Positions 14,523-40,089 of a stretch of DNA of 64,000 nt are shown one piece after another. Below the pieces are notes generated by a model, which was not told where the DNA came from, ran no database searches, and saw nothing but the letters and a program-made list of their open reading frames with translations. Position numbers and translations under genes: made by a program. This DNA is from Desulfobulbaceae bacterium (GTDB lineage: Bacteria > Desulfobacterota > Desulfobulbia > Desulfobulbales > Desulfocapsaceae): positions 6,495-70,494 of the forward strand of contig QKIH01000035.1 of the NCBI GenBank assembly GCA_003249645.1, in the 5' to 3' direction. Numbering within the stretch: position 1 is the stretch's first letter; each line of letters starts with the position of its first letter.

Positions 14523-14620
14523 TGGCGGAAGTGCATGGGAATCGAACCCACCTAGCGAGCTATTAACCCGCTACACCGGATTTGAAGTCCGGGAGGGCCA
14601 CCAGTGCCCTATCCACTTCC
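14523..14620 (-). tRNA. selC: tRNA-Sec (anticodon UCA)
   Basis: The reverse complement reads GGAAGTGGATAGGGCACTGGTGGCCCTCCCGGACTTCAAATCCGGTGTAGCGGGTTAATAGCTCGCTAGGTGGGTTCGATTCCCATGCACTTCCGCCA. It is 98 nt, with anticodon loop CTTCAAA (UCA), a long variable arm, a TTCGATT T-loop and an encoded CCA. GGACTTCAAATCC matches E. coli selC. Confidence 0.9.
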
Positions 14621-23440: not shown

Positions 23441-23441
23441 A

Positions 23442-23843
23442 CTATTCTTCTAAGGATTCGAGATAAGCTTCAGCATCAAGCAGTTGATCATAATCTTCAA
23501 GGTCTTCCATCCGGATTTTTATTATCCAGTTTTCATACGGATCGGCATTCAACAACTCCGGAGATTCCGAGAGGTCCTCGTTAATTTCAACAACTTCTCC
23601 AGACAGCGGCATATACATCTCCGAAACAGCTTTAACAGACTCCAGGCTGCCGAACTCATCACCCTGATCAAAGCTGTCACCGACCTCTGGCATGTCCACA
23701 AAGACGATATCACCAAGTTGATCCTGGGCAAAATCGCTGATGCCGATATAGGCAAATTCATCTTCAATTCTGGCCCATTCATGATCTGCCGAATACCTGA
23801 TGTCGTCCGGTAAAATCAGTTCATCCAACTCTTTCATCTTCAC
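23442..23843 (-). CDS. gcvH: glycine cleavage system H protein
   Basis: 133 aa. Lipoyl-lysine motif LESVKAVSE and YSADHEWAR. Confidence 0.95.
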   Translation of the reverse strand: MKMKELDELILPDDIRYSADHEWARIEDEFAYIGISDFAQDQLGDIVFVDMPEVGDSFDQGDEFGSLESVKAVSEMYMPLSGEVVEINEDLSESPELLNADPYENWIIKIRMEDLEDYDQLLDAEAYLESLEE

Positions 23844-23846
23844 ACC

Positions 23847-25115
23847 TCATTTAAGTGCAATAAATTTTGACAATGCCATTCCGGCCGTTCTCGACGGCCT
23901 TATTTCTTTCCTTATTTCCACTTCAACAGCTCTCCTTCCCGATACCAGTGAAACCCGCTGTCCGATCTCGACTTCTCTATCGACCAGAACAAAACCGCAG
24001 CTTAGACCTTTAATCGTTGTTTTTTCTTCTTCGCCCATATCAATTAAAGAGATTATTTCATCACCTTTTCGATGTATTGCCATATCAGTAGTACAGGTCA
24101 GAATTCTACCGATCCTGTTCCCTTCCAGGTCGGCAACAAAACTCGTTTCACCGGGAAGAATCTTTCTCGGATCAAATCCGGCAAAGCCATAGGTGAAACG
24201 TTTGTCCTTCTCGTTTATGACAGCGCTATCACCAACAAATTCCTTGGTGAAGCTGCCGTTTTCATCCGTCGGCAGGACAAAATCCCAGGGTGTATTGCCG
24301 AAAATCCAATCACCAATATCCTGATGGGACAACGGAAGCATTGCTCCAGCCCGAAGCGAATCACGGGCAGCAAGACCACACGGAATCAGGCCAAAAGGTG
24401 CTCCGCATTCCATGATCTCCTGCCAGAGCGCCAATGCCTTTTCGGGCTGAACAAATATCTCAACACCGAATTCGCCTGTATAGCCTGTCCGCGAAAGCAG
24501 AATTTCCGTTCCGCCTTTGGTAAAAACCGCCGGGTTCGCCTTGCCCGGTTCAAAACATCCCCGATAAGAGAAATAAACAAACTGATCAAGTGCTGCGGCA
24601 GGATCAGCCAGTAGCTGCTGCAGTACCTTGCCGGTGGCTCTTCCCTGAACATCGAGTTTCACCAGCCGATCGGTATAATCAATTATATGCACATCCATTG
24701 CATATGTTGCAAGGTGGGCTGCAACTTTCTCTCCCATCGAGGCATTAACAACCAGCATAAACATCGAATCGTGGATTTTATAGACGATGGCATCATCAAG
24801 TACCGTGCCGTTTTTCAACAGAAAAACACCATAGGCACACCTCCCGGCAGCAAGAGGCTGATGCTCCTTTCCAAGACACCTGAGAAGATCGCGCGAAAAG
24901 CTCCTCTGGAGCAGTGCAAAGGCGTCTTTACCTTCGATAGTCAGAAGCGCCATATGGCTGGTATCGAATAGACCGGCCTGTTCAATCACGGCCAGATGCT
25001 CCTGCTTCGCCCCGGTTTTATACCAGAGCGGCATTTCGTAGCCGCCAAAGGCTGCCATATTGGCACCAAGATTCACATGGGTTTGATAAAAAGGTGTTTT
25101 TTTAACAGGTTCCAT
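23847..25115 (-). CDS. gcvT: aminomethyltransferase (glycine cleavage T protein), long form
   Basis: 422 aa. N-terminus TPFYQTHVNLGANMAAFGGYEMPLWY...GLFDTSHM is GcvT-like. About 50-60 aa longer than typical GcvT. Confidence 0.9.
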   Translation of the reverse strand: MEPVKKTPFYQTHVNLGANMAAFGGYEMPLWYKTGAKQEHLAVIEQAGLFDTSHMALLTIEGKDAFALLQRSFSRDLLRCLGKEHQPLAAGRCAYGVFLLKNGTVLDDAIVYKIHDSMFMLVVNASMGEKVAAHLATYAMDVHIIDYTDRLVKLDVQGRATGKVLQQLLADPAAALDQFVYFSYRGCFEPGKANPAVFTKGGTEILLSRTGYTGEFGVEIFVQPEKALALWQEIMECGAPFGLIPCGLAARDSLRAGAMLPLSHQDIGDWIFGNTPWDFVLPTDENGSFTKEFVGDSAVINEKDKRFTYGFAGFDPRKILPGETSFVADLEGNRIGRILTCTTDMAIHRKGDEIISLIDMGEEEKTTIKGLSCGFVLVDREVEIGQRVSLVSGRRAVEVEIRKEIRPSRTAGMALSKFIALK

Positions 25116-25122
25116 AGGTCTC

Positions 25123-25566
25123 CTATTTGCTCAGCGGCACTTTCAGATCAAAACTCTTGTACACCACAAAGGTTTCCACAGAGCGGACATTTGTTATCTG
25201 AGATACTTCATCGGTATAAAAATCAAGGATGGTATAGCCGGTGTTGAGCAGGACCGTAACAATCAGATCATAACGACCAGTAACAACACAGACGGAAGTC
25301 ACGCCTCTCAGTTTGCTGAATTCTTCACCTTTTTTAACCAGGTCCATATCTTTGACCCTGACCCCGACCATGACCACCGATTGATCAGGCAAAGCCTCCG
25401 GATCAACAAGACCGGTTATTTGAAGAACCCCTTCTTCTTTGAGTTTTTTTACTCTGGCGCGAACAGTTCCTTCAGCGAGCGAGAGCCTGTCGCCTATCTG
25501 CTTGAAAGGCATCCTGCCATCTTTCAGGTAATGAATTATTGCTATACTTGTTTCATCCAGCTGCAT
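25123..25566 (-). CDS. Lrp/AsnC-family transcriptional regulator
   Basis: 147 aa. N-terminal HTH (LDETSIAIIHYLKDGRMPFKQIGDRLSLAEGTVRARVKKL) plus a RAM/ACT-like C-terminal part. Ends 7 nt upstream of gcvT. Confidence 0.85.
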   Translation of the reverse strand: MQLDETSIAIIHYLKDGRMPFKQIGDRLSLAEGTVRARVKKLKEEGVLQITGLVDPEALPDQSVVMVGVRVKDMDLVKKGEEFSKLRGVTSVCVVTGRYDLIVTVLLNTGYTILDFYTDEVSQITNVRSVETFVVYKSFDLKVPLSK

Positions 25567-25687
25567 TTTTTCCTCGACTGATCTTTTTCGCCATCATTCA
25601 GATGACTTTGTCAATATTTTGCTATATAATTGCTGTATTCGTATTTTGCAAATATGTTTTTGACGTTTTCAACAGTAAGGATGAAAA

Positions 25688-27097
25688 ATGATGAAAATAA
25701 AGATAGCAGTTCTAGGCGGCGGCCCCGGAGGGTATTCAGCAGCTATCCGGGCAGCACAACTGGGCGGAGACGTCACCCTTGTCAATAATGACCAGCTGGG
25801 CGGGACATGTCTTAATTACGGCTGCATCCCTTCAAAAATGTTGAAAAAGGCCGGAGAAATTTTTTCCCATTGCATCGACTCAAGTCATCTCGGCATACGC
25901 ATCGAAACACCTCCCGTATTTGACATGGCGAAACATTTGGAGTATCAGCAGCAGACTATCCTGCAGCAGCAAAAAGGTGTCGAGGCTCTTCTCAAGAAAA
26001 ACGGCGTAAACCACCTTCAAGGCCAGGCGAGATTAACAGGTTTAAACTGTCTTGAGATATTACAAGGAGATGGAATCATCCAGCTTGAGTGGGACAAATT
26101 AATCATAGCAGCCGGAAGCAGCCCGTTATCAATTGGCGCGTTTGCCTTTGATCACCGACATATCCTCTCATCAACGGACATATTACGTCTTGTACAGCTT
26201 CCGAAATCGATTGTCATTGTCGGCGGGGGAGTTATCGGTTGTGAATTTGGTTCTATCTTTCGCGATCTTGGCTGCGAAGTTACCATCGTTGAAGCCGCTG
26301 ATCGCCTTCTCCCTCTGCCATCTCTTGACGAGGAAATATCGAAAAATCTTCAGCGCGAATTTAAAAAGAATAAAACGGTAGTTCTGACCAGCCATCTGGT
26401 CAACAGCGTTGATATTCGTAACAACCTGGTACAATGCAGTATTTCATCGGTCAAAACCGGGAAAAGCACAGTTGTCGAGGCTGAAAAGGTGCTTGTAGCA
26501 ATCGGACGAAAATCCAATGCTCAGTCACTGAATCTTGGCTGCATCGGCATACGGTGTGATTCAGCAGACTGGATAACAGTGGACAGCCGGATGCAGACCA
26601 GCTGTGAAAACGTTTATGCCATTGGTGATATTACCGGGCCGTACAGGCCGATGCTTGCGCACGTTGCCGCAGCAGAAGGAGAGGTCGCCGCAGAAAACTG
26701 CTTCGGCAAAGGCAAGAGCATGCGATACGACAATATCCCCAGCGGCATCTTTACAACTCCTGAGATAGGCTCCGTCGGCCTCTCGGCAGGGCAAGCACAG
26801 CAGCAGGGACTTGAAACAGCATCTGAAACAGTACTCTACCGCTCACTGGGAAAATCACATGCCACCGGTGAGATTGCAGGCCTTGCCAAGATTGTTTTTG
26901 AGCAAAACAGTCGGCAGATTATCGGCGTGCAGATCATCGGAGCAAGGGCAACAGATATCATTGCCGAAGCGGCTCTTGCTGTTACCATGAAGGTGACACT
27001 GAATGATCTGGTTGACACGATTCACGCACATCCGACCTTTGCCGAGATAATCAGGGAAACGGCCCAAAAAGCAGTTGGTTACCCGCTGCATGGATAA
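25688..27097 (+). CDS. lpd: dihydrolipoyl dehydrogenase
   Basis: 469 aa. FAD motif GGGPGGY, redox disulfide GGTCLNYGCIPSK, NAD motif GGGVIGCE and a C-terminal HAHPT. Confidence 0.92.
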   Translation: MMKIKIAVLGGGPGGYSAAIRAAQLGGDVTLVNNDQLGGTCLNYGCIPSKMLKKAGEIFSHCIDSSHLGIRIETPPVFDMAKHLEYQQQTILQQQKGVEALLKKNGVNHLQGQARLTGLNCLEILQGDGIIQLEWDKLIIAAGSSPLSIGAFAFDHRHILSSTDILRLVQLPKSIVIVGGGVIGCEFGSIFRDLGCEVTIVEAADRLLPLPSLDEEISKNLQREFKKNKTVVLTSHLVNSVDIRNNLVQCSISSVKTGKSTVVEAEKVLVAIGRKSNAQSLNLGCIGIRCDSADWITVDSRMQTSCENVYAIGDITGPYRPMLAHVAAAEGEVAAENCFGKGKSMRYDNIPSGIFTTPEIGSVGLSAGQAQQQGLETASETVLYRSLGKSHATGEIAGLAKIVFEQNSRQIIGVQIIGARATDIIAEAALAVTMKVTLNDLVDTIHAHPTFAEIIRETAQKAVGYPLHG

Positions 27098-27239: not shown

Positions 27240-27509
27240 ATGAGGTTATTAAAAAACAAAAACGGCCAGGGAATGACGGAATACATCATTATCGTAGCCC
27301 TGATTGCCATAGCAGCAATTGCAGCATTTACTTATTTTGGTCGTACTGTGCGTACCCAGACAACAGCAATGACCCAGTCCCTTGGCGGTGATGCCTCCGG
27401 CGCTAAAACTACCGAAGAAGGTCTGAGCACCATATCGAGCGATGCTGCAACCGCAGGCAAAGAGCAGCAAACGCTTAAAGATTACGTTCAGGAACCATCT
27501 GGAAACTAA
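27240..27509 (+). CDS. flp: Flp-family type IVb pilin
   Basis: MRLLKNKNGQGMTEYIIIVALIAIAAIAAF has the Flp motif (G/xxxxEY followed by a hydrophobic helix). GAGGAG RBS at 27228-27233. The upstream part of the tracked ORF was rejected. Confidence 0.85.
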   Translation: MRLLKNKNGQGMTEYIIIVALIAIAAIAAFTYFGRTVRTQTTAMTQSLGGDASGAKTTEEGLSTISSDAATAGKEQQTLKDYVQEPSGN

Positions 27510-27589: not shown

Positions 27590-29350
27590 ATGGCAGGAGA
27601 AAATCGCTGTCATTTCAAGCTTTATAATCTTTTTGCGCTGAAATTCCCTCTTTCTTCTCAGCGGGGGCAGTCTTCTGTCTTTGTCCTTGTTATGCTGACC
27701 GTTGTTATTGTCAGCGCAATTTTTCTTTACAAGTCAGGTCGACTGACAACCGAGAAAATACAGCTTCAAAACGCCGCCGACGCAGCGGCTTACAGCGCCT
27801 CCGCCCTTGAAGCAAGATCAATGAATTTTGCGGCTTACACCAACCGTGCCATGGCAGGCAATGAAGTCGCCATAGCCCAGGCCGTAGGTCTGCTTTCTCT
27901 TGCCGATGAGTGGAAAGCCATCAACGACTACTTTGAAGTTTATGCCGATATCCTCGATGCAGCCGGGGCAGTCCTTGATATCTTCGGCGGTGCTGGGGCG
28001 CCGTTAAATACAATGGCAGAGGTCCTGCGAACAATCGGTGAGGGATATGAAGGCGCCGGAGACGGGCTTAACGCAATAATCCAACCCATTGCCGGCTACT
28101 GGGTCAAGGCCTTTTCAGTCATCAACACCATTTACAGCTATGCCCAGGAAACCTATCATCTCACCACCATCGCGCTGGTAAGTGATTCAATTTTCAAGAA
28201 TCTTGAAGGCAATGTGGTGGGGACGGAATATAACGGCAACCTCCTGCAGAACCTGTTTGACCGCTCCGGTGACAAGGCCATGATATCAGGGATGGACTAC
28301 ATCGCCCTGGTCGGTCATTTTGCCACCTACATTAACGGATACACCAAACGGTTCACAGTGGGCAGCAAGGATGAAGAAGGCAGGCTGGCAGCAACCGTCC
28401 GTGAAGCAAGAGATCCTTTCAGCAGCGGCGATACAGCAAAAAACAGCGACGGCGTCGAGGAAAACAGGGACTGGCGCATGGCTCTGGAATCAGAACACAT
28501 CACCCACTTCACCATCAATCTGCTGGTCAAGAAGATACGGATAAAAATCGGCTATTCATTTGCCTTCGGCATATACAGCAAAGGCGGATCCGAAGTCATA
28601 CAGAAAGACGACAAACAGTTTGCCTGGTCAGCAATTGACACTTCAGATCTAGAGGTTCAGCTGGCAATTTACCCCTTCTTCGATTTTCATCCGGGCATCC
28701 CAACAGGCGGCGGAGCCTCACAGGCAGCCTCTTCAGAAACTATACTCAATGAAGCGGACATCTCAAGTGATGTGAACAATGCTGTGCTGCCGGGTTACGG
28801 CGGTGCTCCTGATTACAGCATCAGCTGGGATGAGGCAAAGATAGTCATACCGGAAAAACAGATAGAAGGAGCTAACTACAGCGGGCTTAAGGCATACCGG
28901 GATGTGAAACCGAAGCAGGATTCAAATCAGGACAGCGGTTTTTTCCCTTTCAAGTCACCCTTCTTTCTTATCGGCGTTGTCAAAGACCTCGACGCCATGA
29001 ATGAAAACGAACCCAAAGCTGCCGGGGATGATTTTTCCCTGTCCCACGGCACACAGCATAAAAACCTGATTGCAACAGTTGCCAAATCCGAAGTCTATTT
29101 CAAACGGCCGACCGACCTCAGCTATTTTGCACGCGAAGACGGCAACCAGGAAAACTCAAACCTTTTCAGTCCATTCTGGCAGGCACGTCTGGTTCAGCCG
29201 AGCGAGTTTGACAGATTCATAACCATTGCTCTACAGCAGGGGAAATTGTGGATCTCCGAAAAGGCAAAAAAAGACATCGATAAAATCCCTTTTATCAACG
29301 TCGAGAAAATGTCCACCACCATAGAAAATTACCTGCAGAGGTTTTTATGA
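27590..29350 (+). CDS. TadG-like pilus assembly protein / large pseudopilin
   Basis: 586 aa. Prepilin-like N-terminus QRGQSSVFVLVMLTVVIVSAIF followed by LQNAADAAAYSASALEAR, as in the TadG N-terminal domain. Confidence 0.7.
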   Translation: MAGENRCHFKLYNLFALKFPLSSQRGQSSVFVLVMLTVVIVSAIFLYKSGRLTTEKIQLQNAADAAAYSASALEARSMNFAAYTNRAMAGNEVAIAQAVGLLSLADEWKAINDYFEVYADILDAAGAVLDIFGGAGAPLNTMAEVLRTIGEGYEGAGDGLNAIIQPIAGYWVKAFSVINTIYSYAQETYHLTTIALVSDSIFKNLEGNVVGTEYNGNLLQNLFDRSGDKAMISGMDYIALVGHFATYINGYTKRFTVGSKDEEGRLAATVREARDPFSSGDTAKNSDGVEENRDWRMALESEHITHFTINLLVKKIRIKIGYSFAFGIYSKGGSEVIQKDDKQFAWSAIDTSDLEVQLAIYPFFDFHPGIPTGGGASQAASSETILNEADISSDVNNAVLPGYGGAPDYSISWDEAKIVIPEKQIEGANYSGLKAYRDVKPKQDSNQDSGFFPFKSPFFLIGVVKDLDAMNENEPKAAGDDFSLSHGTQHKNLIATVAKSEVYFKRPTDLSYFAREDGNQENSNLFSPFWQARLVQPSEFDRFITIALQQGKLWISEKAKKDIDKIPFINVEKMSTTIENYLQRFL

Positions 29351-30339
29351 TGAAAGGACACATGGCAGTCAGAAATAACAGAGGTCAGGCAGCAACAGAG
29401 TTTCTTATCGCTGCAGCCTTTGTTCTGGTCCCGCTTTTCGTGATCATTCCGCTTATCGGCAAATATATCGATATCAGACATTCTCTCATCCAGCAGGCCC
29501 GCTATGAAGCATGGGAATATACGGTCTGGTACGGCCCGGATGAAAGCATCCTGAGCGGCGGAAAAGAATCGCAGAGGGTCGATCAGAAATCTTGGCGGGA
29601 TACCAGGGATGAGGCTAAAGCCTATTTTTTCACTGATCCGCATACAGCCTCTTACGGTGTCCCCGATTCACAGATTACTGATAATCCTATCTGGGTCGAT
29701 CACCATGGGCAGTCTTTATTTATTAACAGCGAATCAAAAATTAACGGAACACAGAAAGAGGCAGACAGCCCGGATCCGACAATGGGTGTCGTTGACACCG
29801 TCCTCAGCGGCATCAGCTGGGTTACCACCAATTACGGCAGTCTGCTCCATTATATCGATAAAGATGCCGGCGAATTCGACGCTATCTACACGAAGGGATA
29901 CTACAAGACATCGCCAACTGTATCTGTTCGCTCGGTAGGTATGGTGCTGCCTGAAACCGGTTTAGATCATGAGCAGGACAACAGTCTGCAGCAGCCGCTG
30001 GTGCTTCAGTCCAAAGCTGCAGTCTTAAGTAATTACTGGAATGCAGGATCAAAAGACCAGGCAGTCCATGAAGCGAAAGGCCTCGTTTTTTCGGGTATTC
30101 TTGAACCTGTATCAAAGCTCTTTAATGGAGTTCTCGGTTTCATTCAGCAAGGCATCAATTTTGCCGAGAAGTTTTTGCCCGTTGACATGAAATTGCCGAT
30201 GATGCCGGAATTCGGTTATGTGAAAGAAGATCTGATACCATATGAACACCTCGACGAGTCCGATGCCGACGGTGACAAAAAAAACAAACATGAAGTGAAG
30301 AAGATCGGCGGCTTATATTACTACCAGGAAAATGATTAA
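29347..30339 (+). CDS. TadE/TadF-like pseudopilin
   Basis: 330 aa. N-terminus NRGQAATEFLIAAAFVLVPLFVII...ARYEAWEY is TadE-like. Overlaps the preceding gene by 4 nt. Confidence 0.65.
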   Translation: MMKGHMAVRNNRGQAATEFLIAAAFVLVPLFVIIPLIGKYIDIRHSLIQQARYEAWEYTVWYGPDESILSGGKESQRVDQKSWRDTRDEAKAYFFTDPHTASYGVPDSQITDNPIWVDHHGQSLFINSESKINGTQKEADSPDPTMGVVDTVLSGISWVTTNYGSLLHYIDKDAGEFDAIYTKGYYKTSPTVSVRSVGMVLPETGLDHEQDNSLQQPLVLQSKAAVLSNYWNAGSKDQAVHEAKGLVFSGILEPVSKLFNGVLGFIQQGINFAEKFLPVDMKLPMMPEFGYVKEDLIPYEHLDESDADGDKKNKHEVKKIGGLYYYQEND

Positions 30340-31048
30340 CGCAATTCAAACCCATAAAGATATTAATGCGGTCTACAGGACGACAGTTTTTGTCCCGGCT
30401 CTGCTCTATTGCCTGCTCATCACGCATTCTTCATGGGCAAACCTTGCCGATTACCCGACGCCGTCCTGGCTTCAGTTCAATAGTGTAGCCGAAAACATGG
30501 TAATTAACAGCCTGCCTTCTGAAGTTTACTACTTCACCAGTGAGAGTTCTTCTGCAAGCACGCTCGATTATTATCGCAAACAGTGGCAGAGCCATCCCGA
30601 TTATTCACCGGGATACAGAGAAAGCTGGGTCTCTCCGTGGCATATATTAGCCAGAACGGAAGAAGGCAAGCTAATCACCTTGCAGATCCAGGATGACTCT
30701 GACGGCACTTCCCTTGGCTACTTCACAATCGCCGATATGAGCCGCGCACAGACAGTAGAAACATCCGATGTCCCCATGATGACCGGCAGCAAGATCCTCA
30801 ATCAGTCGCTCAGCGAAGATGGAGACAAAAAAAGCAGTGTCACCCTTGTCAGCAACAGCTTTTCCATTAGCAGCAACACGGATTTCTATCTCAGCTATTA
30901 CCTTGATGAAGGGTGGACCAATGATGTCCACCAGGAGGAAAGCGATTCTGTGACGCTGGTCTTCAGGAAAGGACGTCAGGAAGCAAACCTGGTAATCCGG
31001 CAGCTTTTCGGTGTAACGCAAATTGTTATCAATACGGTGATACAATGA
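30332..31048 (+). CDS. hypothetical secreted protein in the Tad locus
   Basis: 238 aa with an N-terminal hydrophobic signal-like segment. No family recognised. Translationally coupled on both sides by overlaps. Confidence 0.5.
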   Translation: MINAIQTHKDINAVYRTTVFVPALLYCLLITHSSWANLADYPTPSWLQFNSVAENMVINSLPSEVYYFTSESSSASTLDYYRKQWQSHPDYSPGYRESWVSPWHILARTEEGKLITLQIQDDSDGTSLGYFTIADMSRAQTVETSDVPMMTGSKILNQSLSEDGDKKSSVTLVSNSFSISSNTDFYLSYYLDEGWTNDVHQEESDSVTLVFRKGRQEANLVIRQLFGVTQIVINTVIQ

Positions 31049-31428
31049 GAAAAAGCATCCTGAATCTGCATGCGATTAGACTGCTTTTCCGAAGCGGCAG
31101 CCAGAAGGGACAATCGACCGTCGAATACGTGGTCGTCGTCAGCCTGCTGCTGGCAACCTTCCTTGGAAGCAGCTGCATCGACGATCTTGTTGATGCATTT
31201 CACAAAAAGTACAAAAGTTATGCCTTCGGCGTCTCCATCTCCGACCCTCCAAGCTCTTCCTTTGACAAGGAAGTAAATGACGGAGCCCAGAAGATCGCTG
31301 ACATAATGAAGATAATAGATGATCTTCTGCAATTTGTCGAAGGTGCAGATCCTGATGCAGGTGGGGCCGGAGACAACCCTGCCACTGAAGAGCTTGACGA
31401 ATTTGAACGCATAATCAAGAACCTTTAA
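31045..31428 (+). CDS. second Flp-like pilin with extended acidic C-terminal domain
   Basis: 127 aa. Leader ...SGSQKGQSTVEYVVVVSLLLATFLG has the same G-Q-x-x-V-E-Y signature as flp. The C-terminal ~70 aa are helical and acidic. Confidence 0.55.
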   Translation: MRKSILNLHAIRLLFRSGSQKGQSTVEYVVVVSLLLATFLGSSCIDDLVDAFHKKYKSYAFGVSISDPPSSSFDKEVNDGAQKIADIMKIIDDLLQFVEGADPDAGGAGDNPATEELDEFERIIKNL

Positions 31429-31448: not shown

Positions 31449-33617
31449 ATGGCTAAATTTGAATTGTTGCACACCAAGAGTGGACGGTTGTTTTTCATCG
31501 CCTTACTTTTTGCCCTCATGGCTGGTGCCGGGACCATACTGTATTTAAAATCCCTGGAACGCCGTATTGAAGAAAAATACACCCCCGCTAAAGAACAGAA
31601 GAGCAGGGTGGTTGTAGCAAGCAGCAATCTCAAAGCCGGTACGGTCCTGTCTCCAAACACGGTTTCTGTCCGTGAAATTCCAGCAACCTATGTCCCCAAA
31701 GAAGCAATCACTGCACAGCAGTTCAACACCATCAGCGGCGCCATTCTTACCGAAGATCTGGAACAGGGTAAAATGCTCACCATGGCCCATATCAACCTGA
31801 ATCTTCCTAAAGACCTGTCAGCCACGATCAAGGAAGGACACCGGGCAATCACTATCAGCTCGGACGAACTCCAGTCCATATCCGGTCTGCTCAGACCCGG
31901 CAACCGTATTGATATTTTCTCGAGGCTCAATTCATCTACCGCTCAAAATGCCAATATCGACTCACGCAACAGCGATGTCATTATCCCGGTTCTGGAAGAC
32001 GTGCTGATACTTGCAACCGGCAAAAAACCGGCTCGTCCCAACGAGGACGATTATCTCAATCTGAACGAAAATCAGCAGAAACATACCTACAATACCATTA
32101 CGCTGGAACTCTCTCCGGATAACGCAGCCCTGCTCAGTCTTGCCCGCTCGGAAGGGGAGCTTATTGCTGTTCTGCGCAACAAGGAGGACAACGGCGGCCT
32201 GCTGTTTGAAAAGATGACCCTGCAGGATCTTGCCGCCAACTCTGCAAAACTGGAAAATGAAGCACAGAAAAAGCTGGATAACCGTTTAGTCGATTCAGTT
32301 ACCAGAACAGCAGACGGCAAACTGGTCACCAAGGACGGGGTTGTCATCAACGACCCGAACGTTCACCTGAACAAAGACGGTCTGCTGGTTACAAAAGACG
32401 GAGTTGTCCTTTCCGGTCGCGGTCTGCACGTTGATTCTAACGGCCATATAGTGGACGAAAACGGCAAGCCGGTGGATACCGCCAGTCTGGTTGCAACAAA
32501 AGACGGCGGCATTGTCGATAAAAACGGCAACGTTCTCGACTCAAACGGCTATCATTCTGTAAAAGGAGGCTTTCTGGCTGACAAAAACGGGAATATCTAC
32601 ACCCCGGACGGACACCTGCTCAAAGGCGTCCATCTCGATAAGAACGGTAATGTCGTTACCAGCGACGGCAAACTACTCAAAGCCTCAGACCTCTCCATCT
32701 CTTCTGACGGAACAGTCAGTATAGCGCCAAAAGTTCCCGGAGTTCATGTCGGCCAAAACGGTGAACTGCTCAACGCTGACGGCAAGCCGGTTACTGCAGC
32801 GGACCTCGTTACCATCGACAAAGACGGCACAGTCAGAACCAAGGATGGCAGAATCCTCAAAGGGGTTCACATGGGGAAAGACGGTAAGCTCTATGATGCA
32901 AACGGCAATGAAGTAAAACCGGAAGATCTGGTTTCAGTCGGCCCAGATGGTTCTGTCACATATAAAAGTGCTGATGCATCTGGTGTTCATCTCGGAAACA
33001 ATGGAGACGTGCTCAATGCTGACGGAAAACCTGCATCGGCTACAGACCTGGTAACTGTCGGAGCCGATGGTCTTGTTCGTACAAAAGACGGGAAAGTGCT
33101 TGAAGGCGTCCATATGGGCAAGGACGGCAAGCTCTATGATGCAAACGGCAAAGAGATGAGTGCAAACGATGTCCTGCTGGCATCACAGGGTTACAAGGCA
33201 GGCAATAACGGCACAGTCGTCGGTCCGGACAGCAAAACTTATACCGCAAAAGATCTGGTAACTGTTGACCCGGATGGCACTGTCAGAACCAAGGACGGCA
33301 AGATACTCAAAGGTGTCTATCGCGACAAAAACGGCGTTTTACGAAACAGCGACGGAACACCGTTGACCGCCCAGGATGTCATTGCACAGAGCAGCGCCCA
33401 AAATATTGATAATGCTCAATCGGGCACGCTGCCGGGTGTAAGCGCCAGTTATTCTCCTGATCTGGCAACATCGATCAAGAACCAGGGAGAAATCAAGACC
33501 CAGCAGTTACGACAAATTGAGTTCATTATTGGCGGTTCCGGAAACGGTGCAGCCAAAACATTTACAGTGCCAGTTGAAGAAAAAAGCATGCAACCTCTTC
33601 CAGGAACCAAAGAATAA
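31449..33617 (+). CDS. cpaB: CpaB/RcpC-family pilus assembly protein with a long C-terminal repeat extension
   Basis: Residues 1-250 are a TM anchor, a SAF-like part (VVVASSNLKAGTVLSPNTVSVREIP) and an RcpC part (GHRAITISSDELQSISGLLRPGNRIDIF). Residues ~285-640 are repeats. Total length is 722 aa. Confidence 0.8.
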   Translation: MAKFELLHTKSGRLFFIALLFALMAGAGTILYLKSLERRIEEKYTPAKEQKSRVVVASSNLKAGTVLSPNTVSVREIPATYVPKEAITAQQFNTISGAILTEDLEQGKMLTMAHINLNLPKDLSATIKEGHRAITISSDELQSISGLLRPGNRIDIFSRLNSSTAQNANIDSRNSDVIIPVLEDVLILATGKKPARPNEDDYLNLNENQQKHTYNTITLELSPDNAALLSLARSEGELIAVLRNKEDNGGLLFEKMTLQDLAANSAKLENEAQKKLDNRLVDSVTRTADGKLVTKDGVVINDPNVHLNKDGLLVTKDGVVLSGRGLHVDSNGHIVDENGKPVDTASLVATKDGGIVDKNGNVLDSNGYHSVKGGFLADKNGNIYTPDGHLLKGVHLDKNGNVVTSDGKLLKASDLSISSDGTVSIAPKVPGVHVGQNGELLNADGKPVTAADLVTIDKDGTVRTKDGRILKGVHMGKDGKLYDANGNEVKPEDLVSVGPDGSVTYKSADASGVHLGNNGDVLNADGKPASATDLVTVGADGLVRTKDGKVLEGVHMGKDGKLYDANGKEMSANDVLLASQGYKAGNNGTVVGPDSKTYTAKDLVTVDPDGTVRTKDGKILKGVYRDKNGVLRNSDGTPLTAQDVIAQSSAQNIDNAQSGTLPGVSASYSPDLATSIKNQGEIKTQQLRQIEFIIGGSGNGAAKTFTVPVEEKSMQPLPGTKE
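32301..33368 (+). repeat. coding tandem repeats (short x-K-D-G-x-hydrophobic units nested in ~80-aa duplications)
   Basis: For example, GVHVGQNGELLNADGKPVTAADLVTIDKDGTVRTKDGRILKGVHMGKDGKLYDANGNE pairs with GVHLGNNGDVLNADGKPASATDLVTVGADGLVRTKDGKVLEGVHMGKDGKLYDANGKE, and a third partial copy follows. The DNA copies have diverged. Confidence 0.85.
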
Positions 33618-33620
33618 GAT

Positions 33621-35129
33621 ATGAAACAACAGTCACAGAGAATCTCCTGTACAGGTTTTCAATCACACCGCAGCCTGCTTATTACAATGCTTTTCCTGCT
33701 CACTTTTCTTTTGCTTGGAACGGGGCAGACGACACATGCCGCCGGCAGGCAAAACATTTCCATGTATCTTGGTGAAGTCAAAGTGATGGAGGTTGGCAAT
33801 GTAATCAGGGTGGCGCTTGGTAACCCAAAGGTAATATCCAATTCACTTCTTCACCCCGGTCAGCTGGTAATACTCGCCAATGCCGTGGGCATTACTTCCA
33901 TGCATCTCTGGCTCGAAGACGGCAGCGAAATGGAATTTGACGTACTGGTGAAGGAAAAGCAGTCCTTTGATTCCTATCTTGAAATCAAGCAGCTCCTTAC
34001 AACCATTCCAAGCGTCACTGTGAAAAAAGTCGGTGAACTGATCGTTCTGACCGGCACCATCAGGGCAGACCAGCAGGAGATATTCGAACGAATTGTCGGC
34101 CAGTTCAAAGGTGTTCTTAACCTCGTCACCCACGGTAACCCGTATCAGGAGATCAGTTCTTTGTTGACGGCAGTACCAAATCTTAAAGTAAGAACAGTTG
34201 GTTCCAATACTGTTCTATCCGGTGAAATCAGTGACGAATACTCAAAGATCATCAATCTGGTTACCGGAAAGTTCCCCAATGTCATCAACATGACCCGTGC
34301 CCAGGCTGCCATTGCCGGGAAAATGGTATACATGGAAGTCAAGATCATGGAAGTCAGCAAAAGTTTTTCTGAAAAACTCGGCATCAACTGGTCAAACCTC
34401 GGTATTGTCGGCCCTTCCCTTGAATTCGGCTGGCAGAGGACGAGAAACGGAGCATCCATCCTGAACGCTTCTGCAACCAGCTCTTCACTTAAAAAATCAG
34501 ACGGCATAGAGTATGGCGCCGGCTATATCGGCATTGCAACCGGCATCACCTCCACTATCAACCTGGCGGAAGATACCGGCGATGCAATATTATTAGCAGA
34601 ACCTCGACTGAGCGCACGATCAGGAGGCAAGGCAGAATTCCTTGCAGGAGGCGAATACCCCTTACCGGTTTCCAACGATGGCCAGGTAACCGTTGAATTT
34701 AAAAAATACGGTATCCAGCTGATGATCGAACCGGTTGTCGACGAACTCGGCAATATTCTTGCCCATGTAGATACTGAAGTTTCAACTATCGACGATTCCG
34801 TTGCAGTTCAGGACATTCCGGGCATAAAAAGCCGCAGCACCAAGACAGATATCAGTATGCGTGATAATCAGACCCTGGTTATTGCCGGACTGCTAAGCGA
34901 TGAGGCCGGCAAAAGCTTTGACAAGGTAAAAGGGCTCGGGGACATTCCCGTTCTAGGTGCACTTTTCCGTTCAAAAAGCTTTCAGAACAAACAGACTGAG
35001 CTGATCATATTCGTCACTCCGAGGGTCTATGACGCGACCAGTCCGATCAATATGGAAGCGATTGAAAAAGCCGCCAGAATCAGCCAGGACTACAACGAGC
35101 TTGTCAAAGGTGGGGGAATTCTTGATTAG
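33621..35129 (+). CDS. cpaC: Tad secretin CpaC/RcpA
   Basis: 502 aa. Signal peptide, a pilus-N-terminal domain (LGEVKVMEVGNVIRVALGNPKV), two BON-like repeats and a secretin domain (LAEPRLSARSGGKAEFLAGGEYP...GDIPVLGALFRS). Confidence 0.9.
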   Translation: MKQQSQRISCTGFQSHRSLLITMLFLLTFLLLGTGQTTHAAGRQNISMYLGEVKVMEVGNVIRVALGNPKVISNSLLHPGQLVILANAVGITSMHLWLEDGSEMEFDVLVKEKQSFDSYLEIKQLLTTIPSVTVKKVGELIVLTGTIRADQQEIFERIVGQFKGVLNLVTHGNPYQEISSLLTAVPNLKVRTVGSNTVLSGEISDEYSKIINLVTGKFPNVINMTRAQAAIAGKMVYMEVKIMEVSKSFSEKLGINWSNLGIVGPSLEFGWQRTRNGASILNASATSSSLKKSDGIEYGAGYIGIATGITSTINLAEDTGDAILLAEPRLSARSGGKAEFLAGGEYPLPVSNDGQVTVEFKKYGIQLMIEPVVDELGNILAHVDTEVSTIDDSVAVQDIPGIKSRSTKTDISMRDNQTLVIAGLLSDEAGKSFDKVKGLGDIPVLGALFRSKSFQNKQTELIIFVTPRVYDATSPINMEAIEKAARISQDYNELVKGGGILD

Positions 35130-35141
35130 AGGGTATGCATT

Positions 35142-36875
35142 ATGTTTGAAATCCTGCTGAAAGACAACAAAGGCAAGCTGCTCGAAACAAGCACCTGTGA
35201 AACCGGATCGTGCACGGTCGGCCGTTCGGGGCGTAATCTTATTAACCTGAAGGGTTGGCGTATTGCGGCCATTCATGCTGAATTTTCTCTTCAGTCAAAA
35301 GGTCTGTACGTCTTCGATCGATCTGGTGGTATCGGCATACTGGTTAATGGCACACCCGTTCCCTCATTCGGACCGCTTCATGCCAGTGATGAGATTCAGA
35401 TAGGGTCCTACCGCCTCACAGCCCATTATGACGAGCCAGTCCTTTCCTATTCTGAAACTGCTGTGAGCAGCCCCAAAGCGCCTGAACAGCCTGAAAAGGA
35501 CATCCCGGAAGAACACATCGAGCATTTTACTGCAAAACAGACCGGCAGAAATATCGGTGTACAGCATCTTGAACATGATGAACAGCACAGTCACCAGCAC
35601 AGCAGCAAACGCTTTCTGTGGCATAACCGTATTCACCAGAAACTCATGCTGGCCATGGATCTTCGCCGCACAGACGTTGAATCCATGGACGATAACAAGC
35701 TCAAGGAAACAGTCGAATCACTGATCAAGGAAATCATCGAATCGGTAAAAAATGATCTGCCTTCTGATGTGGACTGTGAACGGCTGGCCAAAGAGGTGTT
35801 GAACGAGGCAATCGGGCTCGGCCCACTTGAAGATCTGCTGGCAGACGGCAGCATCACTGAAATAATGGTCAACCGCTTCGATGATGTCTACATTGAAAGA
35901 CGTGGGAAACTGCAGAAAAGTGAAGTGACCTTCTCAAGCGACGATGCCGTACGTTCAGTTATTGAGAGAATCGTTTCCCCGCTTGGCCGCAGAATTGACG
36001 AAAGCTCTCCCATGGTCGATGGACGCCTGAAAGACGGCTCCAGGGTCAACGCCATCATTCCTCCTCTGGCAATAAAGGGCCCGACCCTTACTATCCGAAA
36101 ATTCTCCAAACAGAAACTGCAGATGCAGGATCTGATCGATTTCGGTGCAATTTCCGCTGCCATGGCCTCTTTTCTCGAAACAGCCGTCACCAATAGAAAA
36201 AATATCGTCATCTCCGGCGGTACAGGCAGCGGCAAGACAACCTTTCTCAACGTGCTGAGTAATTACATTCCTCACACCGAACGCATTATCACGGTTGAAG
36301 ACTCAGCAGAACTGAGACTCGGTCAGCCCCATGTTGTCTCCCTTGAAGCACGGCCTGCCAACATGGAAGGAGTAGGAGGCATAACCATTCGTGATCTTGT
36401 TAAAAACTGTCTGCGCATGCGGCCGGATCGGATCGTGGTCGGCGAGTGCCGAGGCGGAGAGGCCCTTGATATGTTGCAGGCAATGAATACCGGGCATGAC
36501 GGATCCCTTACCACCGTTCATGCCAACACCCCCCGTGATCTTATATCCCGTCTTGAGGTCATGGTTATGATGGCAGGAATGGACCTGCCGGATCGCGCAA
36601 TCCGCGAGCAGGTAACCTCTGCAGTACACCTTGTCGTTCAGCAGGCCCGATTTGCCGACGGTACCAGAAAAATCACCCATATTACCGAGATTACCGGTAT
36701 GGAAAGCGGCATGGTGCAGATGCAGGATATTTTTATCTATAAGCAGCGCGGGTTTGACAGTGAAGGAAGGGTGCTCGGCGACTTTAAGGCAACCGGCCGG
36801 GTTCCCGAGTTTTATGAAAACCTGCAGGAAAGAGGAATTCCTGCGGACATGTCTTTATTTGCGGTGAACGAATGA
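35142..36875 (+). CDS. cpaF: FHA-domain-fused Tad secretion ATPase CpaF/TadA
   Basis: 577 aa. N-terminal FHA pattern (CTVGRSGRNLINL...IHAEF...LYVFDRSGGIGILVNGTPV...IQIGSYRL). C-terminal T2SSE ATPase with Walker A GGTGSGKTT, Asp box and His box. Confidence 0.92.
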   Translation: MFEILLKDNKGKLLETSTCETGSCTVGRSGRNLINLKGWRIAAIHAEFSLQSKGLYVFDRSGGIGILVNGTPVPSFGPLHASDEIQIGSYRLTAHYDEPVLSYSETAVSSPKAPEQPEKDIPEEHIEHFTAKQTGRNIGVQHLEHDEQHSHQHSSKRFLWHNRIHQKLMLAMDLRRTDVESMDDNKLKETVESLIKEIIESVKNDLPSDVDCERLAKEVLNEAIGLGPLEDLLADGSITEIMVNRFDDVYIERRGKLQKSEVTFSSDDAVRSVIERIVSPLGRRIDESSPMVDGRLKDGSRVNAIIPPLAIKGPTLTIRKFSKQKLQMQDLIDFGAISAAMASFLETAVTNRKNIVISGGTGSGKTTFLNVLSNYIPHTERIITVEDSAELRLGQPHVVSLEARPANMEGVGGITIRDLVKNCLRMRPDRIVVGECRGGEALDMLQAMNTGHDGSLTTVHANTPRDLISRLEVMVMMAGMDLPDRAIREQVTSAVHLVVQQARFADGTRKITHITEITGMESGMVQMQDIFIYKQRGFDSEGRVLGDFKATGRVPEFYENLQERGIPADMSLFAVNE

Positions 36876-37723
36876 TACTAACCCTGTTCGTGACAGTATG
36901 CGCATCGATTGCAACCGGCGTTTTTGCCTGGCTTTTCTTCGAGCATTTCTCGCACAGGATTCTAGAAGCGAAAGACTCCATCTCTTCCACCACCGCACTG
37001 AAGTTTTCCGAGATGTTTCTCTTTGTCGACGTCACCCGCTACTTCAGGATTTATATAGCCCTCATTATCGGCCTGCCTGTTCTTGTCACCCTGCTCTCAG
37101 AAGATTTCCTGCTTGGCATCATCACTCTTCTGGCGCTCTTTGCAGTACCGCCGATGATGATCAACTCGATGACGAAGCGCCGCCTGAAAAAAATCGAGCA
37201 GCAGCTCCCCGATGCCCTGATGATGATATCAGGTTCACTGAAAGCCGGGGCAAGTCTTTCAAGCGCTATCGACAACCTGATACGGGAGAGCCCGGCACCG
37301 ATCAGTCAGGAGTTCGGTCTCATGCTGCGTGAGAGAAAGCTTGGCGTCGATCTCGACACCGCTCTTTCTCATCTTGAGCAGCGAATCCCGCTTGAAGATT
37401 TTTCACTGAGCATCTCCGCCATCAGAATCTCGCGGGAAGTAGGTGGAAACCTTGCAGAAACATTGGAATCTCTTGCGGAAACAATACGCAAAAAACTGAC
37501 GATGGAAGGAAAAATAGAGAGCCTCACCGCCCAAGGAAAATTACAGGGGATCGTCATGAGTTCGCTGCCTGTTCTGCTCGTAGGTGTTCTGATGAAGGTT
37601 GAACCTGCTGCCATGGGTATGCTGTTTACGACCAAACTCGGCTGGGCCGTACTACTGCTGATCATTGCCATGCAGCTTCTCGGCTTCCTGGCAATTAGAA
37701 AAATCACCACCATAGACGTCTGA
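36872..37723 (+). CDS. tadB: Tad inner-membrane platform protein TadB
   Basis: 283 aa with a T2SSF-like domain (LPDALMMISGSLKAGASLSSAI...). Overlaps cpaF by 4 nt. Confidence 0.85.
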   Translation: MILTLFVTVCASIATGVFAWLFFEHFSHRILEAKDSISSTTALKFSEMFLFVDVTRYFRIYIALIIGLPVLVTLLSEDFLLGIITLLALFAVPPMMINSMTKRRLKKIEQQLPDALMMISGSLKAGASLSSAIDNLIRESPAPISQEFGLMLRERKLGVDLDTALSHLEQRIPLEDFSLSISAIRISREVGGNLAETLESLAETIRKKLTMEGKIESLTAQGKLQGIVMSSLPVLLVGVLMKVEPAAMGMLFTTKLGWAVLLLIIAMQLLGFLAIRKITTIDV

Positions 37724-37726
37724 AAT

Positions 37727-38611
37727 ATGGATACAAGCTATCAGCTCATACTTGCATCGTTCTCAATCATATCAGCGCTTGCCCTGTTCTACTGTCTGGC
37801 ATCGCTTTATGACGATGTGCCGGAAGATGACAGAGAGTTCATGGATCCGCTGCCCAAAGTGCTGAAACTCGTCTGGCCGCTGGTCCGGTTGATAGCCTAC
37901 CACCTGGTCAGCCCCATCGCTCCATACGACTACGTCAAACACGTGGAGGAAAGACTTCAGAAAACCGGTGTCAGCTATCTGATGATGGCAGAGGAGTTTA
38001 TCGCCCTTCGTATCTTTACTGCTCTCTTCACTCTCCTTTTCGGCTCGCTGATACTCATTACTTTCAACGAATGGAATAATCTTCTGATTCTTATCCTGCC
38101 GGTGATCGGTTATCTCTATCCGCATATATGGGTCAGGGATATCCGCAAGAGACTTGAAGACGGCATATTGAGAACGCTGCCCGCTTATCTCGATTTCATT
38201 TCCATGGCAGTGGAAGCGGGCCTCAACTTCTCAGGAGCCATCGAACAGGCAAGACGCAAGGGCCCTAAAGGACCGCTTGTCAATGAATTCGGCATAGTTC
38301 TGCGTGATCTGCGGTCCGGTATAAACCGCGAAAATGCGCTGAAGCGTATGGCGGAACGCCTGGATATCCATGAACTGACAAGCTTTGTCAATGCCGTGGT
38401 CCAGGCAGAAAAAATGGGATCCGGCCTGGGCACCATTTTAAAGATACAGGCGGAACAGAGAAGAAACGAACGGTTTCAACGAGCTGAAAAAAAGGCCATG
38501 GAGGCACCTGTAAAACTGGTTGGCCCGCTTATCCTGTTTATTTTCCCGACCACTTTTATCGTGCTGGCCTTTCCGATTGTGATGAAATTTCTCCATGGTG
38601 GTCTTTTTTGA
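37727..38611 (+). CDS. tadC: Tad inner-membrane platform protein TadC
   Basis: 294 aa with a T2SSF-like domain (LPAYLDFISMAVEAGLNFSGAIEQ...). Confidence 0.85.
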   Translation: MDTSYQLILASFSIISALALFYCLASLYDDVPEDDREFMDPLPKVLKLVWPLVRLIAYHLVSPIAPYDYVKHVEERLQKTGVSYLMMAEEFIALRIFTALFTLLFGSLILITFNEWNNLLILILPVIGYLYPHIWVRDIRKRLEDGILRTLPAYLDFISMAVEAGLNFSGAIEQARRKGPKGPLVNEFGIVLRDLRSGINRENALKRMAERLDIHELTSFVNAVVQAEKMGSGLGTILKIQAEQRRNERFQRAEKKAMEAPVKLVGPLILFIFPTTFIVLAFPIVMKFLHGGLF

Positions 38612-38964
38612 GATACGGTACTCTTTGCAACGATACAGACAGGAAGGTCATCATACCGAAGGTGTCGATTACTGAAAACTGGATTGAACGGGCAAGAGGG
38701 CTGCTCGGTCGTGCTCAGCTGGAAGAGGGAGAAGCAATGCTGATATCTCCCTGCAATTCAATTCACACGTTTTTTATGCCTTACGCTATCGATGTGGTAT
38801 ATCTTGATAAAAAGATGCATATTCTCAAGATCTGCTCCGACCTTTCACCATGGAGCCTCAGCGGCTGCCGCACTGCCTTCATGGTGCTTGAGCTGCCTGC
38901 ACGGGCAGCATCAAAAAATAATCTTCAAACAGGAATGCGTTTATCATGGCAGGAAGATATATAA
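38608..38964 (+). CDS. DUF192-family protein
   Basis: 118 aa. RARGLLGR...MLISPCNSIHTFFMPYAIDVVYLDK is the DUF192 (COG1430) pattern. Confidence 0.75.
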   Translation: MRYGTLCNDTDRKVIIPKVSITENWIERARGLLGRAQLEEGEAMLISPCNSIHTFFMPYAIDVVYLDKKMHILKICSDLSPWSLSGCRTAFMVLELPARAASKNNLQTGMRLSWQEDI

Positions 38965-39428
38965 TCCGGGCTCTATTACTGCTCTTTCTTGCAGTTGTTT
39001 CATTGTCAGGCTGCGCCGCAACAAAGCCCGGCAAAACGGTCTTTGACTACGAGCAGGAAGCCAGCGAGGCCTATGCTGGCGGCAGGTATGATGTGGCTGT
39101 TAACCGTTATGAATACCTTGTTGAGCAGGTACCGAAAGACCCGAATTTCTGGTTCAGGCTGGCAAACTCCTATGCCAAAAACGGTGAACCGGAAAAAGCC
39201 GTTGTGGCCTATCAGAATACCCTGCTCCGCGACAGCACCTATGAAAAAGCATGGTATAATCTCGGTATCATCCAAATGCAGCAGGCACTGAAGACGTTTA
39301 TCGACATGCAGAAAGCCATGCCGCCGAACAGCCCAGTCCATTCGCTTGCTGAAGAGAAAATGAACGGTCTTTTTCTCCTGCTCGGCCAGAATCCAGATGA
39401 AGAACATCCTGCAGCCGACACCAAATAG
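38946..39428 (+). CDS. TPR-repeat lipoprotein (TadD-like)
   Basis: 160 aa. Lipobox LSGCAA and TPR repeats (FWFRLANSYAKNGEPEKAVVAYQNTLLRDSTYEKAWYNLG). Confidence 0.6.
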   Translation: MAGRYIIRALLLLFLAVVSLSGCAATKPGKTVFDYEQEASEAYAGGRYDVAVNRYEYLVEQVPKDPNFWFRLANSYAKNGEPEKAVVAYQNTLLRDSTYEKAWYNLGIIQMQQALKTFIDMQKAMPPNSPVHSLAEEKMNGLFLLLGQNPDEEHPAADTK

Positions 39429-40089
39429 ATTCCATCAGCTTTTCCAGGCATCCGGCCAGAGCATGGTCGAACTGCTGGCTATTTTAAGCGCAATGCTGCT
39501 GCTTATTTTCGGCACCATCCAGTTTGCTCTGATCTGGCATGCTAAGATCACCCTGAACTACGCCGTCTTTGAAGCCGTAAGAGCAGGAACCCTGAACAAT
39601 GCAACCTATGATGCTGTCAAGGAAGGCTTTGCGAGAGGACTCGCCCCGTTATACAGCTTTGACGAAAACGATGAAGATCAGGTAGGCGCCTTTCAGGTGG
39701 CTCGTTCAAAGATTTTGGAAGAGTTCGATTCAAGCGAACAGTTGATTCGTATTGAACGGTTGAACCCGACCGAGAACAGTTTTGCGGATTTTGCAGACGG
39801 GGCCGGCTATATCCCCAATGATAATCTCCGTTTTCGCTCATCAACCATCAGCCATCGATCCGGCAGCTCAATCCAGGATGCCAACCTGCTGCACCTCAGA
39901 GTCACGTACTGGTATCCGCTCTATGTTCCTCTGGTCAATAAGTTCATGTTCAACACGGTAATCTGTAGCGGAAAATGGAAAAAGGACAAGGTGTGCAGTC
40001 AGGATATTCCGCGCATTCCGCTGACATCGACAACTGTTTTACGCATGCAGACACCCGCTCTCAACACTCAGGGATTTTACCAACCGTAA
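39397..40089 (+). CDS. TadE-like pseudopilin
   Basis: 230 aa. ASGQSMVELLAILSAMLLLIFGTIQFALIWHAKITLNYAVFEAVRAG is a TadE N-terminal domain. Confidence 0.7.
   Translation: MKNILQPTPNRFHQLFQASGQSMVELLAILSAMLLLIFGTIQFALIWHAKITLNYAVFEAVRAGTLNNATYDAVKEGFARGLAPLYSFDENDEDQVGAFQVARSKILEEFDSSEQLIRIERLNPTENSFADFADGAGYIPNDNLRFRSSTISHRSGSSIQDANLLHLRVTYWYPLYVPLVNKFMFNTVICSGKWKKDKVCSQDIPRIPLTSTTVLRMQTPALNTQGFYQP

Follow-up and report, generated by a model that had tools for sequence, protein, structure and literature searches.

A long CpaB/RcpC protein in a Tad pilus locus of a Desulfobulbaceae bacterium with a modular repeat array between its RcpC domain and its C-terminal hairpin

CpaB/RcpC proteins belong to the alignment complex of the tight adherence (Tad) pilus and are expected to form a periplasmic alignment ring. 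In RcpC of Pseudomonas aeruginosa (PDB 9gzr) and in CpaB of Caulobacter, a transmembrane helix, a SAF domain (D1), an RcpC domain (D2), a linker (L3) and, at the C-terminus, a beta-hairpin follow one another. The RcpC ring is ~10 nm across; RcpC of P. aeruginosa requires its hairpin to function, and this hairpin binds the N-domain of RcpA, the secretin (PMC12307814). In Caulobacter CpaB, the same two strands attach to the adaptor CpaI, and CpaI attaches to the secretin (PMC13170226, PMC12637624); the connection between the inner- and outer-membrane subcomplexes has been reported to differ among Tad systems (PMC13170226). Here we describe a cpaB/rcpC gene (31449..33617, + strand) in a stretch of 64,000 nucleotides from a Desulfobulbaceae bacterium (assembly GCA_003249645.1, contig QKIH01000035.1), referred to below as the window. 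The gene is a single uninterrupted open reading frame (ORF) for a protein of 722 aa; RcpC has 303 aa and Caulobacter CpaB 297 aa. It shares the element order of these two proteins and, like their genes, lies just upstream of the secretin gene in the tad locus, but its L3 carries an insertion of ten repeat modules.

The N-terminal third of the product is a bona fide CpaB/RcpC. TIGR03177 matched residues 17-272 with 144.1 bits (cut-off 71, 4e-42). A hydrophobic transmembrane helix at residues ~13-33 (31485..31547, +; RLFFIALLFALMAGAGTILYL), part of a helix spanning residues 10-44 in the AlphaFold2 (AF2) model, represents the inner-membrane anchor and agrees with the topology reported for RcpC (PMC12307814). 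It is followed by D1 at residues 53-115 (31605..31793, +; Pfam SAF 1.3e-8), whose model matched FlgA and SAF folds in Foldseek, and by the ring-forming D2 at residues 122-243 (31812..32177, +; Pfam RcpC 1.7e-22). The P. aeruginosa RcpC entry, the sole solved structure related by sequence to the window protein, was matched by D2 both in sequence (7e-4) and in fold (1.5e-12, Foldseek on the AF2 model). Comparison with short CpaBs assigned residues 246-283 (32184..32297, +) to the proximal part of L3, with a helix at residues 258-278 in the AF2 model; the 'MTLQDL' found there corresponds to the 'MDLxxLL' motif of the short proteins.

The extra part of the protein was located from the two conserved elements that flank it. 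The end of D2 is marked by 'LRNKED' at residues 242-247 and the hairpin (landmark residues 689-709) by 'IEFIIGG' at residues 689-695, with ~440 aa between these two motifs. In the short CpaBs of syntenic Burkholderiales loci, a motif of the form h-E-h-I-h-GG (h, hydrophobic) is found 30-45 residues past the 'LRNxxD' end of D2, and L3 measures ~35 aa in RcpC and short CpaBs, against ~440 aa with ten folded modules in the window protein. The short L3 (~30-45 aa) is thus the feature in which the window CpaB is a variant. Because of this difference in spacing, the sequence comparison places the array as an insertion in L3, between D2 and the C-terminal hairpin. The initial annotation had treated the array as an extension; an extra part of ~360 aa is indeed present, but it is inserted before the conserved hairpin and is not terminal. 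The insertion site matters for the mechanism, because the hairpin is the docking element in both P. aeruginosa and Caulobacter.

What had been annotated as a Gly-rich tail (IEFIIGGSGNGAAKTFTVPV, residues ~687-710; family version YEVEYIxGGxSDGxAKTFxVxV) turned out to be the conserved CpaB/RcpC C-terminal hairpin motif rather than low-complexity sequence. This hairpin (residues 687-710, 33507..33578, +; QIEFIIGGSGNGAAKTFTVPVEEK) is the presumed secretin-docking element. Long and short CpaBs alike conserve its motif, h-E-h-I-h-GG...h-x-V-x-V, and all of the best 120 of 176 homologue clusters end in it after the repeats. When a hairpin hidden Markov model (HMM) was run against all 2235 ORFs from 30 of the syntenic Burkholderiales loci, cpaB ORFs filled the top 19 ranks, and the match was always downstream of D2. 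In the AF2 model, strands at residues 688-694 and 703-709 flank the Gly turn of the hairpin.

The array itself occupies residues 284-645 (32298..33383, +) and is periodic. The region that the initial annotation had described as KDG-type periplasmic beta-hairpin-like repeats (32301-33368, residues 285-640) bears this description out in its spacing. [DN]G dipeptides occur 34 times in the window protein, and the gap from one turn dipeptide to the next is most often exactly 7 residues (17 cases). When residues 280-660 were compared with 200 shuffles, their BLOSUM autocorrelation peaked at lags 7 (z 7.2), 81 (6.9), 69 (5.9), 41 (5.5) and 14 (5.5). The array comprises approximately 35 heptads of the pattern G-x-h-h-[TD]-[KA]-[DN], with the consensus G-x-[VLI]-[VLR]-[TD]-[KA]-[DN]; the two adjacent hydrophobic positions are hydrophobic in 74% and 63% of the heptads. 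At the next level, an iterated module HMM resolved residues 284-645 into ten modules of ~40 aa (family consensus GVTVDKDGNLVTADGKVLTAADLTVGKDGTVRTKDGKVL). Two module types, A and B, alternate in the centre of the array and produce a super-repeat of ~81 aa, i.e., double modules. The lag-81 peak agrees with the higher-order duplications of ~80 aa proposed earlier, and these have diverged in the DNA as had been claimed: copies within the array recur at 243 and 207 nt and share only 60-78% of their nucleotides. Tandem Repeats Finder reported no array in the window DNA. Together, these two observations show that the duplications are old. Aromatic residues are almost absent from the array (F 0.3%, Y 2.1%, no W).

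A homology search with the window CpaB retrieved 176 clusters, the best 120 of which were all 491-835 aa long; precomputed Pfam annotation of these 120 showed RcpC in all and PF22692 and SAF in most of them. A protein identical to the window CpaB is present in public collections. The initial annotation had allowed for an origin of the array in misassembly or in the fusion of two genes. It is true that short-read assemblies can collapse or expand repeats, and in one pair of proteins (P0016/P0041) the extra unit is 99% identical to the adjacent unit, which points either to a recent duplication or to a collapse in the assembly. However, the low identity of the DNA copies in the window and the silence of Tandem Repeats Finder argue against this origin, as do the frame, which is open throughout, and the hairpin that follows the array in the homologue clusters. 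Moreover, two homologues that are 86-88% identical to the window protein and exactly 722 aa long come from independent assemblies, and Desulfocapsa sulfexigens DSM 10523, a cultured host whose genome is finished, encodes a 641-aa version. An artefact or fusion is therefore essentially excluded.

Residues 1-283 alone were searched against 1.84 billion representatives, which gave 6782 CpaB-like hits. Among the nearest 55 of these, 40 were at least 450 aa long, while farther ones dropped to the usual 260-380 aa. The window CpaB is about twice the usual length, which bears out the initial annotation of an unusually long protein, with short forms of 260-380 aa found among the nearest 150 representatives. 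The number of modules in the family ranges from 0 to 12, all at one site, and length followed the relation 33.7 x modules + 364 (r = 0.81), the intercept being about the size of a short CpaB. Lengths group near 570, 640 and 725 aa. At the array site, the short and long forms are bridged by proteins that carry either 1-4 modules or another Asp-Gly (DG) repeat, 11 aa in length. Pairs of proteins with 99-100% identity were found that are separated by a single in-frame indel of 80 or 85 aa. Besides the pair mentioned above, two other length-variant pairs contained an extra unit only 35-55% identical to its neighbour, and here diverged modules have genuinely been lost.

Long CpaBs in a conserved gene order were detected in ~50 species of several phyla. 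Within Desulfobulbales they were present in Desulfocapsa, Desulfobulbus, Desulforhopalus and Desulfofustis. They were also found in metagenome-assembled genomes (MAGs) labelled Desulfuromonas, in many Gammaproteobacteria, such as Thiohalobacter, Sulfuriflexus, Thiotrichaceae, Cellvibrionaceae and Pseudomonadales, and in single MAGs of further phyla. A word-based search with the array alone returned only 7 CpaB fragments; the composition of the array makes such a search poorly sensitive and uninformative on carriers other than CpaB.

Other kinds of enlargement were observed among the relatives. Three CpaBs of 370-430 aa (P0149, P0140 and P0164) carry units of ~11 aa (VVDGKVVDANG; VVDGKVVDANGNEIGK) at the L3 site, and L3 appears to be a hot spot for the expansion of DG-hairpin repeats. 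Giant relatives, namely P0128 (1684 aa), P0183 (1197 aa), P0157 (1026 aa), P0163 and P0202, contain 4-7 tandem SAF+RcpC units, with 7, 5 and 4 Pfam RcpC stretches. They represent either another way to enlarge the alignment complex or an artefact of gene calling or assembly.

Region-wise identity to orthologues showed that the hairpin is the most conserved segment of CpaB and the connector behind the array (residues 646-686, 33384..33506, +; helix-strand-helix in the AF2 model) the least conserved. Identity to P0002 was 88% in the repeats, 90% in D1-D2 and 73% in residues 646-686; for P0010 the corresponding values were 52%, 50% and 19%. On these alignments the repeats and the folded D1-D2 domains evolve at an equally slow rate. 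Conservation in the array falls on the turn residues Gly and Asp/Asn and on the pair of adjacent hydrophobic positions.

The AF2 model, calculated from an alignment of 98 sequences, had a mean predicted local distance difference test (pLDDT) score of 84 over the full length and 87.8 over residues 280-660, with a predicted TM-score (pTM) of 0.46-0.54. In residues 280-639, 28 of the 36 ten-residue blocks had a pLDDT of 80-97, the minimum block being 64. Strands of 2-3 residues alternate with turns of 5 residues. The model thus indicates a confident local structure in the form of an elongated, non-globular chain of short hairpins. Foldseek with the array model found no global match in PDB (TM-score <=0.16). 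The best local matches were to TcsL, through its CROPs, at 7e-7 and to an Rhs shell at 6e-6, and weaker ones to reovirus sigma1, the Afp mini-fibre, C-LytA (0.18), TcdA (0.58) and the flagellar rod. Against BFVD, the top 19 matches were all adenovirus fibre proteins (E 1e-8 to 1e-3, TM-score <=0.11, root-mean-square deviation (RMSD) 25-64 A). Low TM-scores and large RMSDs are expected here because the array is a long non-globular object. CROPs, choline-binding repeats and the shafts of adenovirus and reovirus fibres, the only structural neighbours of the array in Foldseek, likewise consist of short strand-turn-strand units with Gly turns, in tens of copies, and are elongated. They differ in having units of 15-20 aa, whereas the window array is built on a heptad or a 40-aa module and lacks ligand-binding aromatics. 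No sequence homology of the array to CROPs, choline-binding repeats or fibre shafts was found.

By sequence, the best PDB match of the array was to NHL repeats (E~0.8), and the ~40-aa module itself was matched by no Pfam family. Pfam hits on the array, namely PF22692 (FlgE/F/G D1), PF12396 (DUF3659) and PF20606 (DUF6799), share with it a 'G-x-h-h-x-x-DG' double-hairpin motif, a likeness at the motif level and not family membership. Three known classes were considered for the array and rejected. A flagellar FlgE/F/G identity was suggested by PF22692 at 36-44 bits (threshold 27), but this score is the sum of partial weak stretches; neither Flg_bb_rod nor Flg_bbr_C was detected, and TIGR02490 and NF004242 scored far below their cut-offs. 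A closed beta-propeller of 4-8 blades does not fit a module number of 0-12 or a pTM of 0.54 despite a pLDDT of 88; Foldseek propeller matches had TM-scores <=0.11 and probabilities <=0.25, and the NHL match was as poor as given above. Choline-binding or CROP repeats were rejected on the absence of a Pfam CW_binding match, the scarcity of aromatics and TM-scores <=0.16.

We favour, with moderate confidence, the reading that the array in L3 is folded into a stalk or set of staves of variable length, by which the alignment ring would be linked to the secretin. CpaB would be anchored in the inner membrane, with its D1-D2 body forming the alignment ring. Beyond D2, the ten ~40-aa beta-hairpin modules (~360 aa) would form an elongated stalk, or laterally packed staves, and the C-terminal hairpin would dock on the N-domain of the secretin and tie the ring to it. 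The stalk would lengthen or enclose the route of the pilus through the periplasm; its length would be set by the number of modules and would evolve by gain or loss of one- or two-module units. The basis for this reading is the domain identity, insertion site, modularity, conservation, copy-number variation and confident elongated fold prediction described above, from which we infer docking of the hairpin on the window secretin, a ring of ~12 protomers and a role of the array as spacer or conduit wall. An extended conduit or spacer, as proposed in the initial annotation, fits the anatomy of the protein, the array lying between ring and docking hairpin. CpaI of Alphaproteobacteria offers a parallel, since it, too, bridges the alignment ring and the secretin CpaC. 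It is, however, a separate small beta-sandwich protein, whereas the window CpaB would have its connector built in as repeats.

Several results weigh against this reading. The equivalence of the window hairpin to that of P. aeruginosa RcpC is based on motif, position and enrichment. A 37-position hairpin profile did not retrieve RcpC from PDB, the motif being too short, and TIGR03177 did not extend into the hairpin when run on the C-terminal 58 aa or on an in-silico deletion construct. The pLDDT of the hairpin is low in the AF2 monomer model, as is common where a segment depends on a partner. CpaB and secretin lengths showed no anticorrelation across loci (rho 0.15, p 0.2), which also rules out the idea that a long CpaB compensates for a shorter secretin. 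Finally, by rough analogy with beta-solenoids and fibre shafts, an array of ~360 residues might span ~13-30 nm. Such a span would match or surpass a normal periplasm, with the ring and the secretin still to be added, and a simple straight spacer may then not fit. The array could be straight, tilted, intertwined or tube-forming.

The last two geometries lead to an alternative in which the modules of neighbouring protomers intertwine into shafts like the triple beta-spirals of adenovirus fibres, or form a closed tube of 12 staves, so that the array is a load-bearing, length-quantised conduit. The adenovirus fibre proteins that fill the top 19 BFVD matches, and the PDB matches to reovirus sigma1 and the Afp mini-fibre, are in its favour. 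The two adjacent hydrophobics of each heptad point to opposite faces of the strand, so both faces need burial, and indels occur in two-module steps. In a ring ~10 nm across, each protomer would have ~2.6 nm of the circumference to itself, and a hairpin ribbon is about that wide. Yet the TM-scores are very low and the RMSDs huge, and the likeness is one between monomer predictions of repeats. The high monomer pLDDT suggests that packing in cis may suffice, and the unit is 7 or 14 residues in the array but 15 in fibre shafts. We regard this alternative as possible but unlikely. The same tentative standing applies to its stronger form, in which the modules of adjacent protomers would make rigid shafts or a closed palisade, a quantised tube of 13-30 nm with the module number (0-12) as a ruler. 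If the ruler were true, module number would match, or locally impose, the distance from the inner-membrane platform to the outer-membrane pore in what are mostly sulfur-cycling sediment bacteria.

Two further explanations give the array either a ligand or no specific role, and both are less likely than the stalk. It might bind peptidoglycan, another envelope polymer or a partner and thereby anchor or position the machine, in the manner of choline-binding or CROP repeats. The weak local Foldseek likeness to the CROPs of TcsL, to C-LytA and to TcdA would agree with this, and so would the proposal of Evans et al. (2025) that RcpC is the likely recruiter of a peptidoglycan-handling factor, none being known for Tad (PMC12307814). 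But Pfam CW_binding, LysM, SPOR, OmpA and AMIN gave no match on the array, the aromatics that such repeats use are nearly absent, conservation is confined to turn and core residues, and copy number runs from 0 to 12. Cell-wall binding, which the initial annotation had suggested, thus finds no support in known domains, composition or conserved positions, and a binding module is improbable. The array could instead be a tolerated, largely neutral expansion in a permissive linker. Copy number varies strongly even between near-identical proteins, the Burkholderiales-type machine works without the insert, judged by synteny, and the 11-aa units of P0149, P0140 and P0164 show that other repeats occupy the same site. 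Neutrality is hard to reconcile with repeats that are conserved like D1-D2 and above the linker residues 646-686, with the retention of the array in ~50 species of several phyla, with the confident fold prediction and with diverged DNA copies that show long-term maintenance; we consider it a poor explanation.

The cpaB gene is part of a tad locus in which all the genes listed here are on the + strand. Upstream lie genes for an Flp pilin (27240-27509; Pfam Flp_Fap, pilin-like N-terminus), a TadG-like protein (27590-29350; Pfam Tad), a TadE-like protein (29347-30339), a conserved protein of 238 aa with a signal-like N-terminus and no Pfam match (30332-31048; recognized by synteny) and a pseudopilin-like ORF of 127 aa with a pilin-like N-terminus (31045-31428). 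Three genes of the locus have no Pfam match. Directly downstream of cpaB is the rcpA/cpaC secretin gene (33621..35129; Pfam Secretin 3e-39), whose product carries an N-terminal beta-sandwich domain (Pfam T2SS-T3SS_pil_N 6e-12, residues 45-110) and is the likely docking partner. It is followed by genes for an FHA-CpaF ATPase, TadB, TadC, a DUF192 protein, a TPR (TadD-like) protein and TadE (35142..40089), assigned by Pfam and synteny.

Synteny of the locus was observed in 50+ loci, and Burkholderiales also share the same 13-gene order, with a short CpaB. Because this 13-gene locus exists with a short CpaB, the insert is an add-on to a working machine that is unchanged in other respects. CpaB length correlated with the length of the TadG-like protein in loci L001-L080 (Spearman 0.46, p 1.6e-4), and negatively with the lengths of the TPR, DUF192 and Flp ORFs; these correlations are probably confounded by phylogeny (Burkholderiales vs the rest).

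Some other features of the locus were recorded. The CpaF/TadA ATPase (35142-36875, +) has an N-terminal FHA domain (Pfam 5.9e-8, residues 24-88), a fusion seen in essentially all related loci. No TadZ/CpaE (ParA/MinD-type) or prepilin peptidase gene was seen within the tad locus, and the locus looks like a distinct Tad subtype. The 238-aa gene is syntenic in nearly all loci with long or short CpaBs, while the 127-aa pilin-like ORF was detected in roughly half of the loci with a long CpaB and in only one with a short CpaB (L069). The DUF192 (COG1430) gene (38608-38964, +) lies between tadC and the small TPR (TadD-like) gene, a position conserved in related loci. At ~89 aa, the precursor of the Flp pilin exceeds the usual length of its class; it has a G/MTEY processing motif and a polar C-terminal extension of ~50 aa; its Pfam Flp_Fap score of 23.6 bits is under the cut-off of 32.2.

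Outside the locus, the region just upstream (20650-27097) contains a glycine-cleavage cluster with GcvPB, GcvPA and GcvT on the minus strand, together with genes for an AsnC-type regulator and for dihydrolipoamide dehydrogenase. With ~70% identity to the GcvPB proteins of Desulfobulbus, Desulfoprunum and Desulfosediminicola, the window GcvPB places the source, an uncultured bacterium, in Desulfobulbales. Downstream of the locus, 41055-43313 encodes a GAF-PAS hybrid histidine kinase. A tRNA-Sec gene was detected at 14523-14620 (-; Rfam 77 bits, ARAGORN anticodon TCA).

No description of a repeat-bearing CpaB/RcpC was found in the searchable literature, including PMC12307814, PMC13170226 and PMC12637624, and databases annotate the long repeat-bearing proteins simply as CpaB. 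With regard to the initial question whether such proteins are already common and described, they are common in public data, whereas no description of them was found. The ~40-aa module is covered by no Pfam family. The joint between the two halves of the Tad machine, in the inner and the outer membrane, was worked out only in 2025-2026, and it differs between species. Besides the direct contact between hairpin and secretin in Pseudomonas and the CpaI bridge in Caulobacter, the long-CpaB clade would represent a third solution, a modular connector built into the ring protein itself. The natural series of 0-12 modules in a syntenic machine could be used to test how important the distance from ring to secretin is for pilus assembly, and this length series bears on how trans-envelope machines cope with the width of the periplasm.

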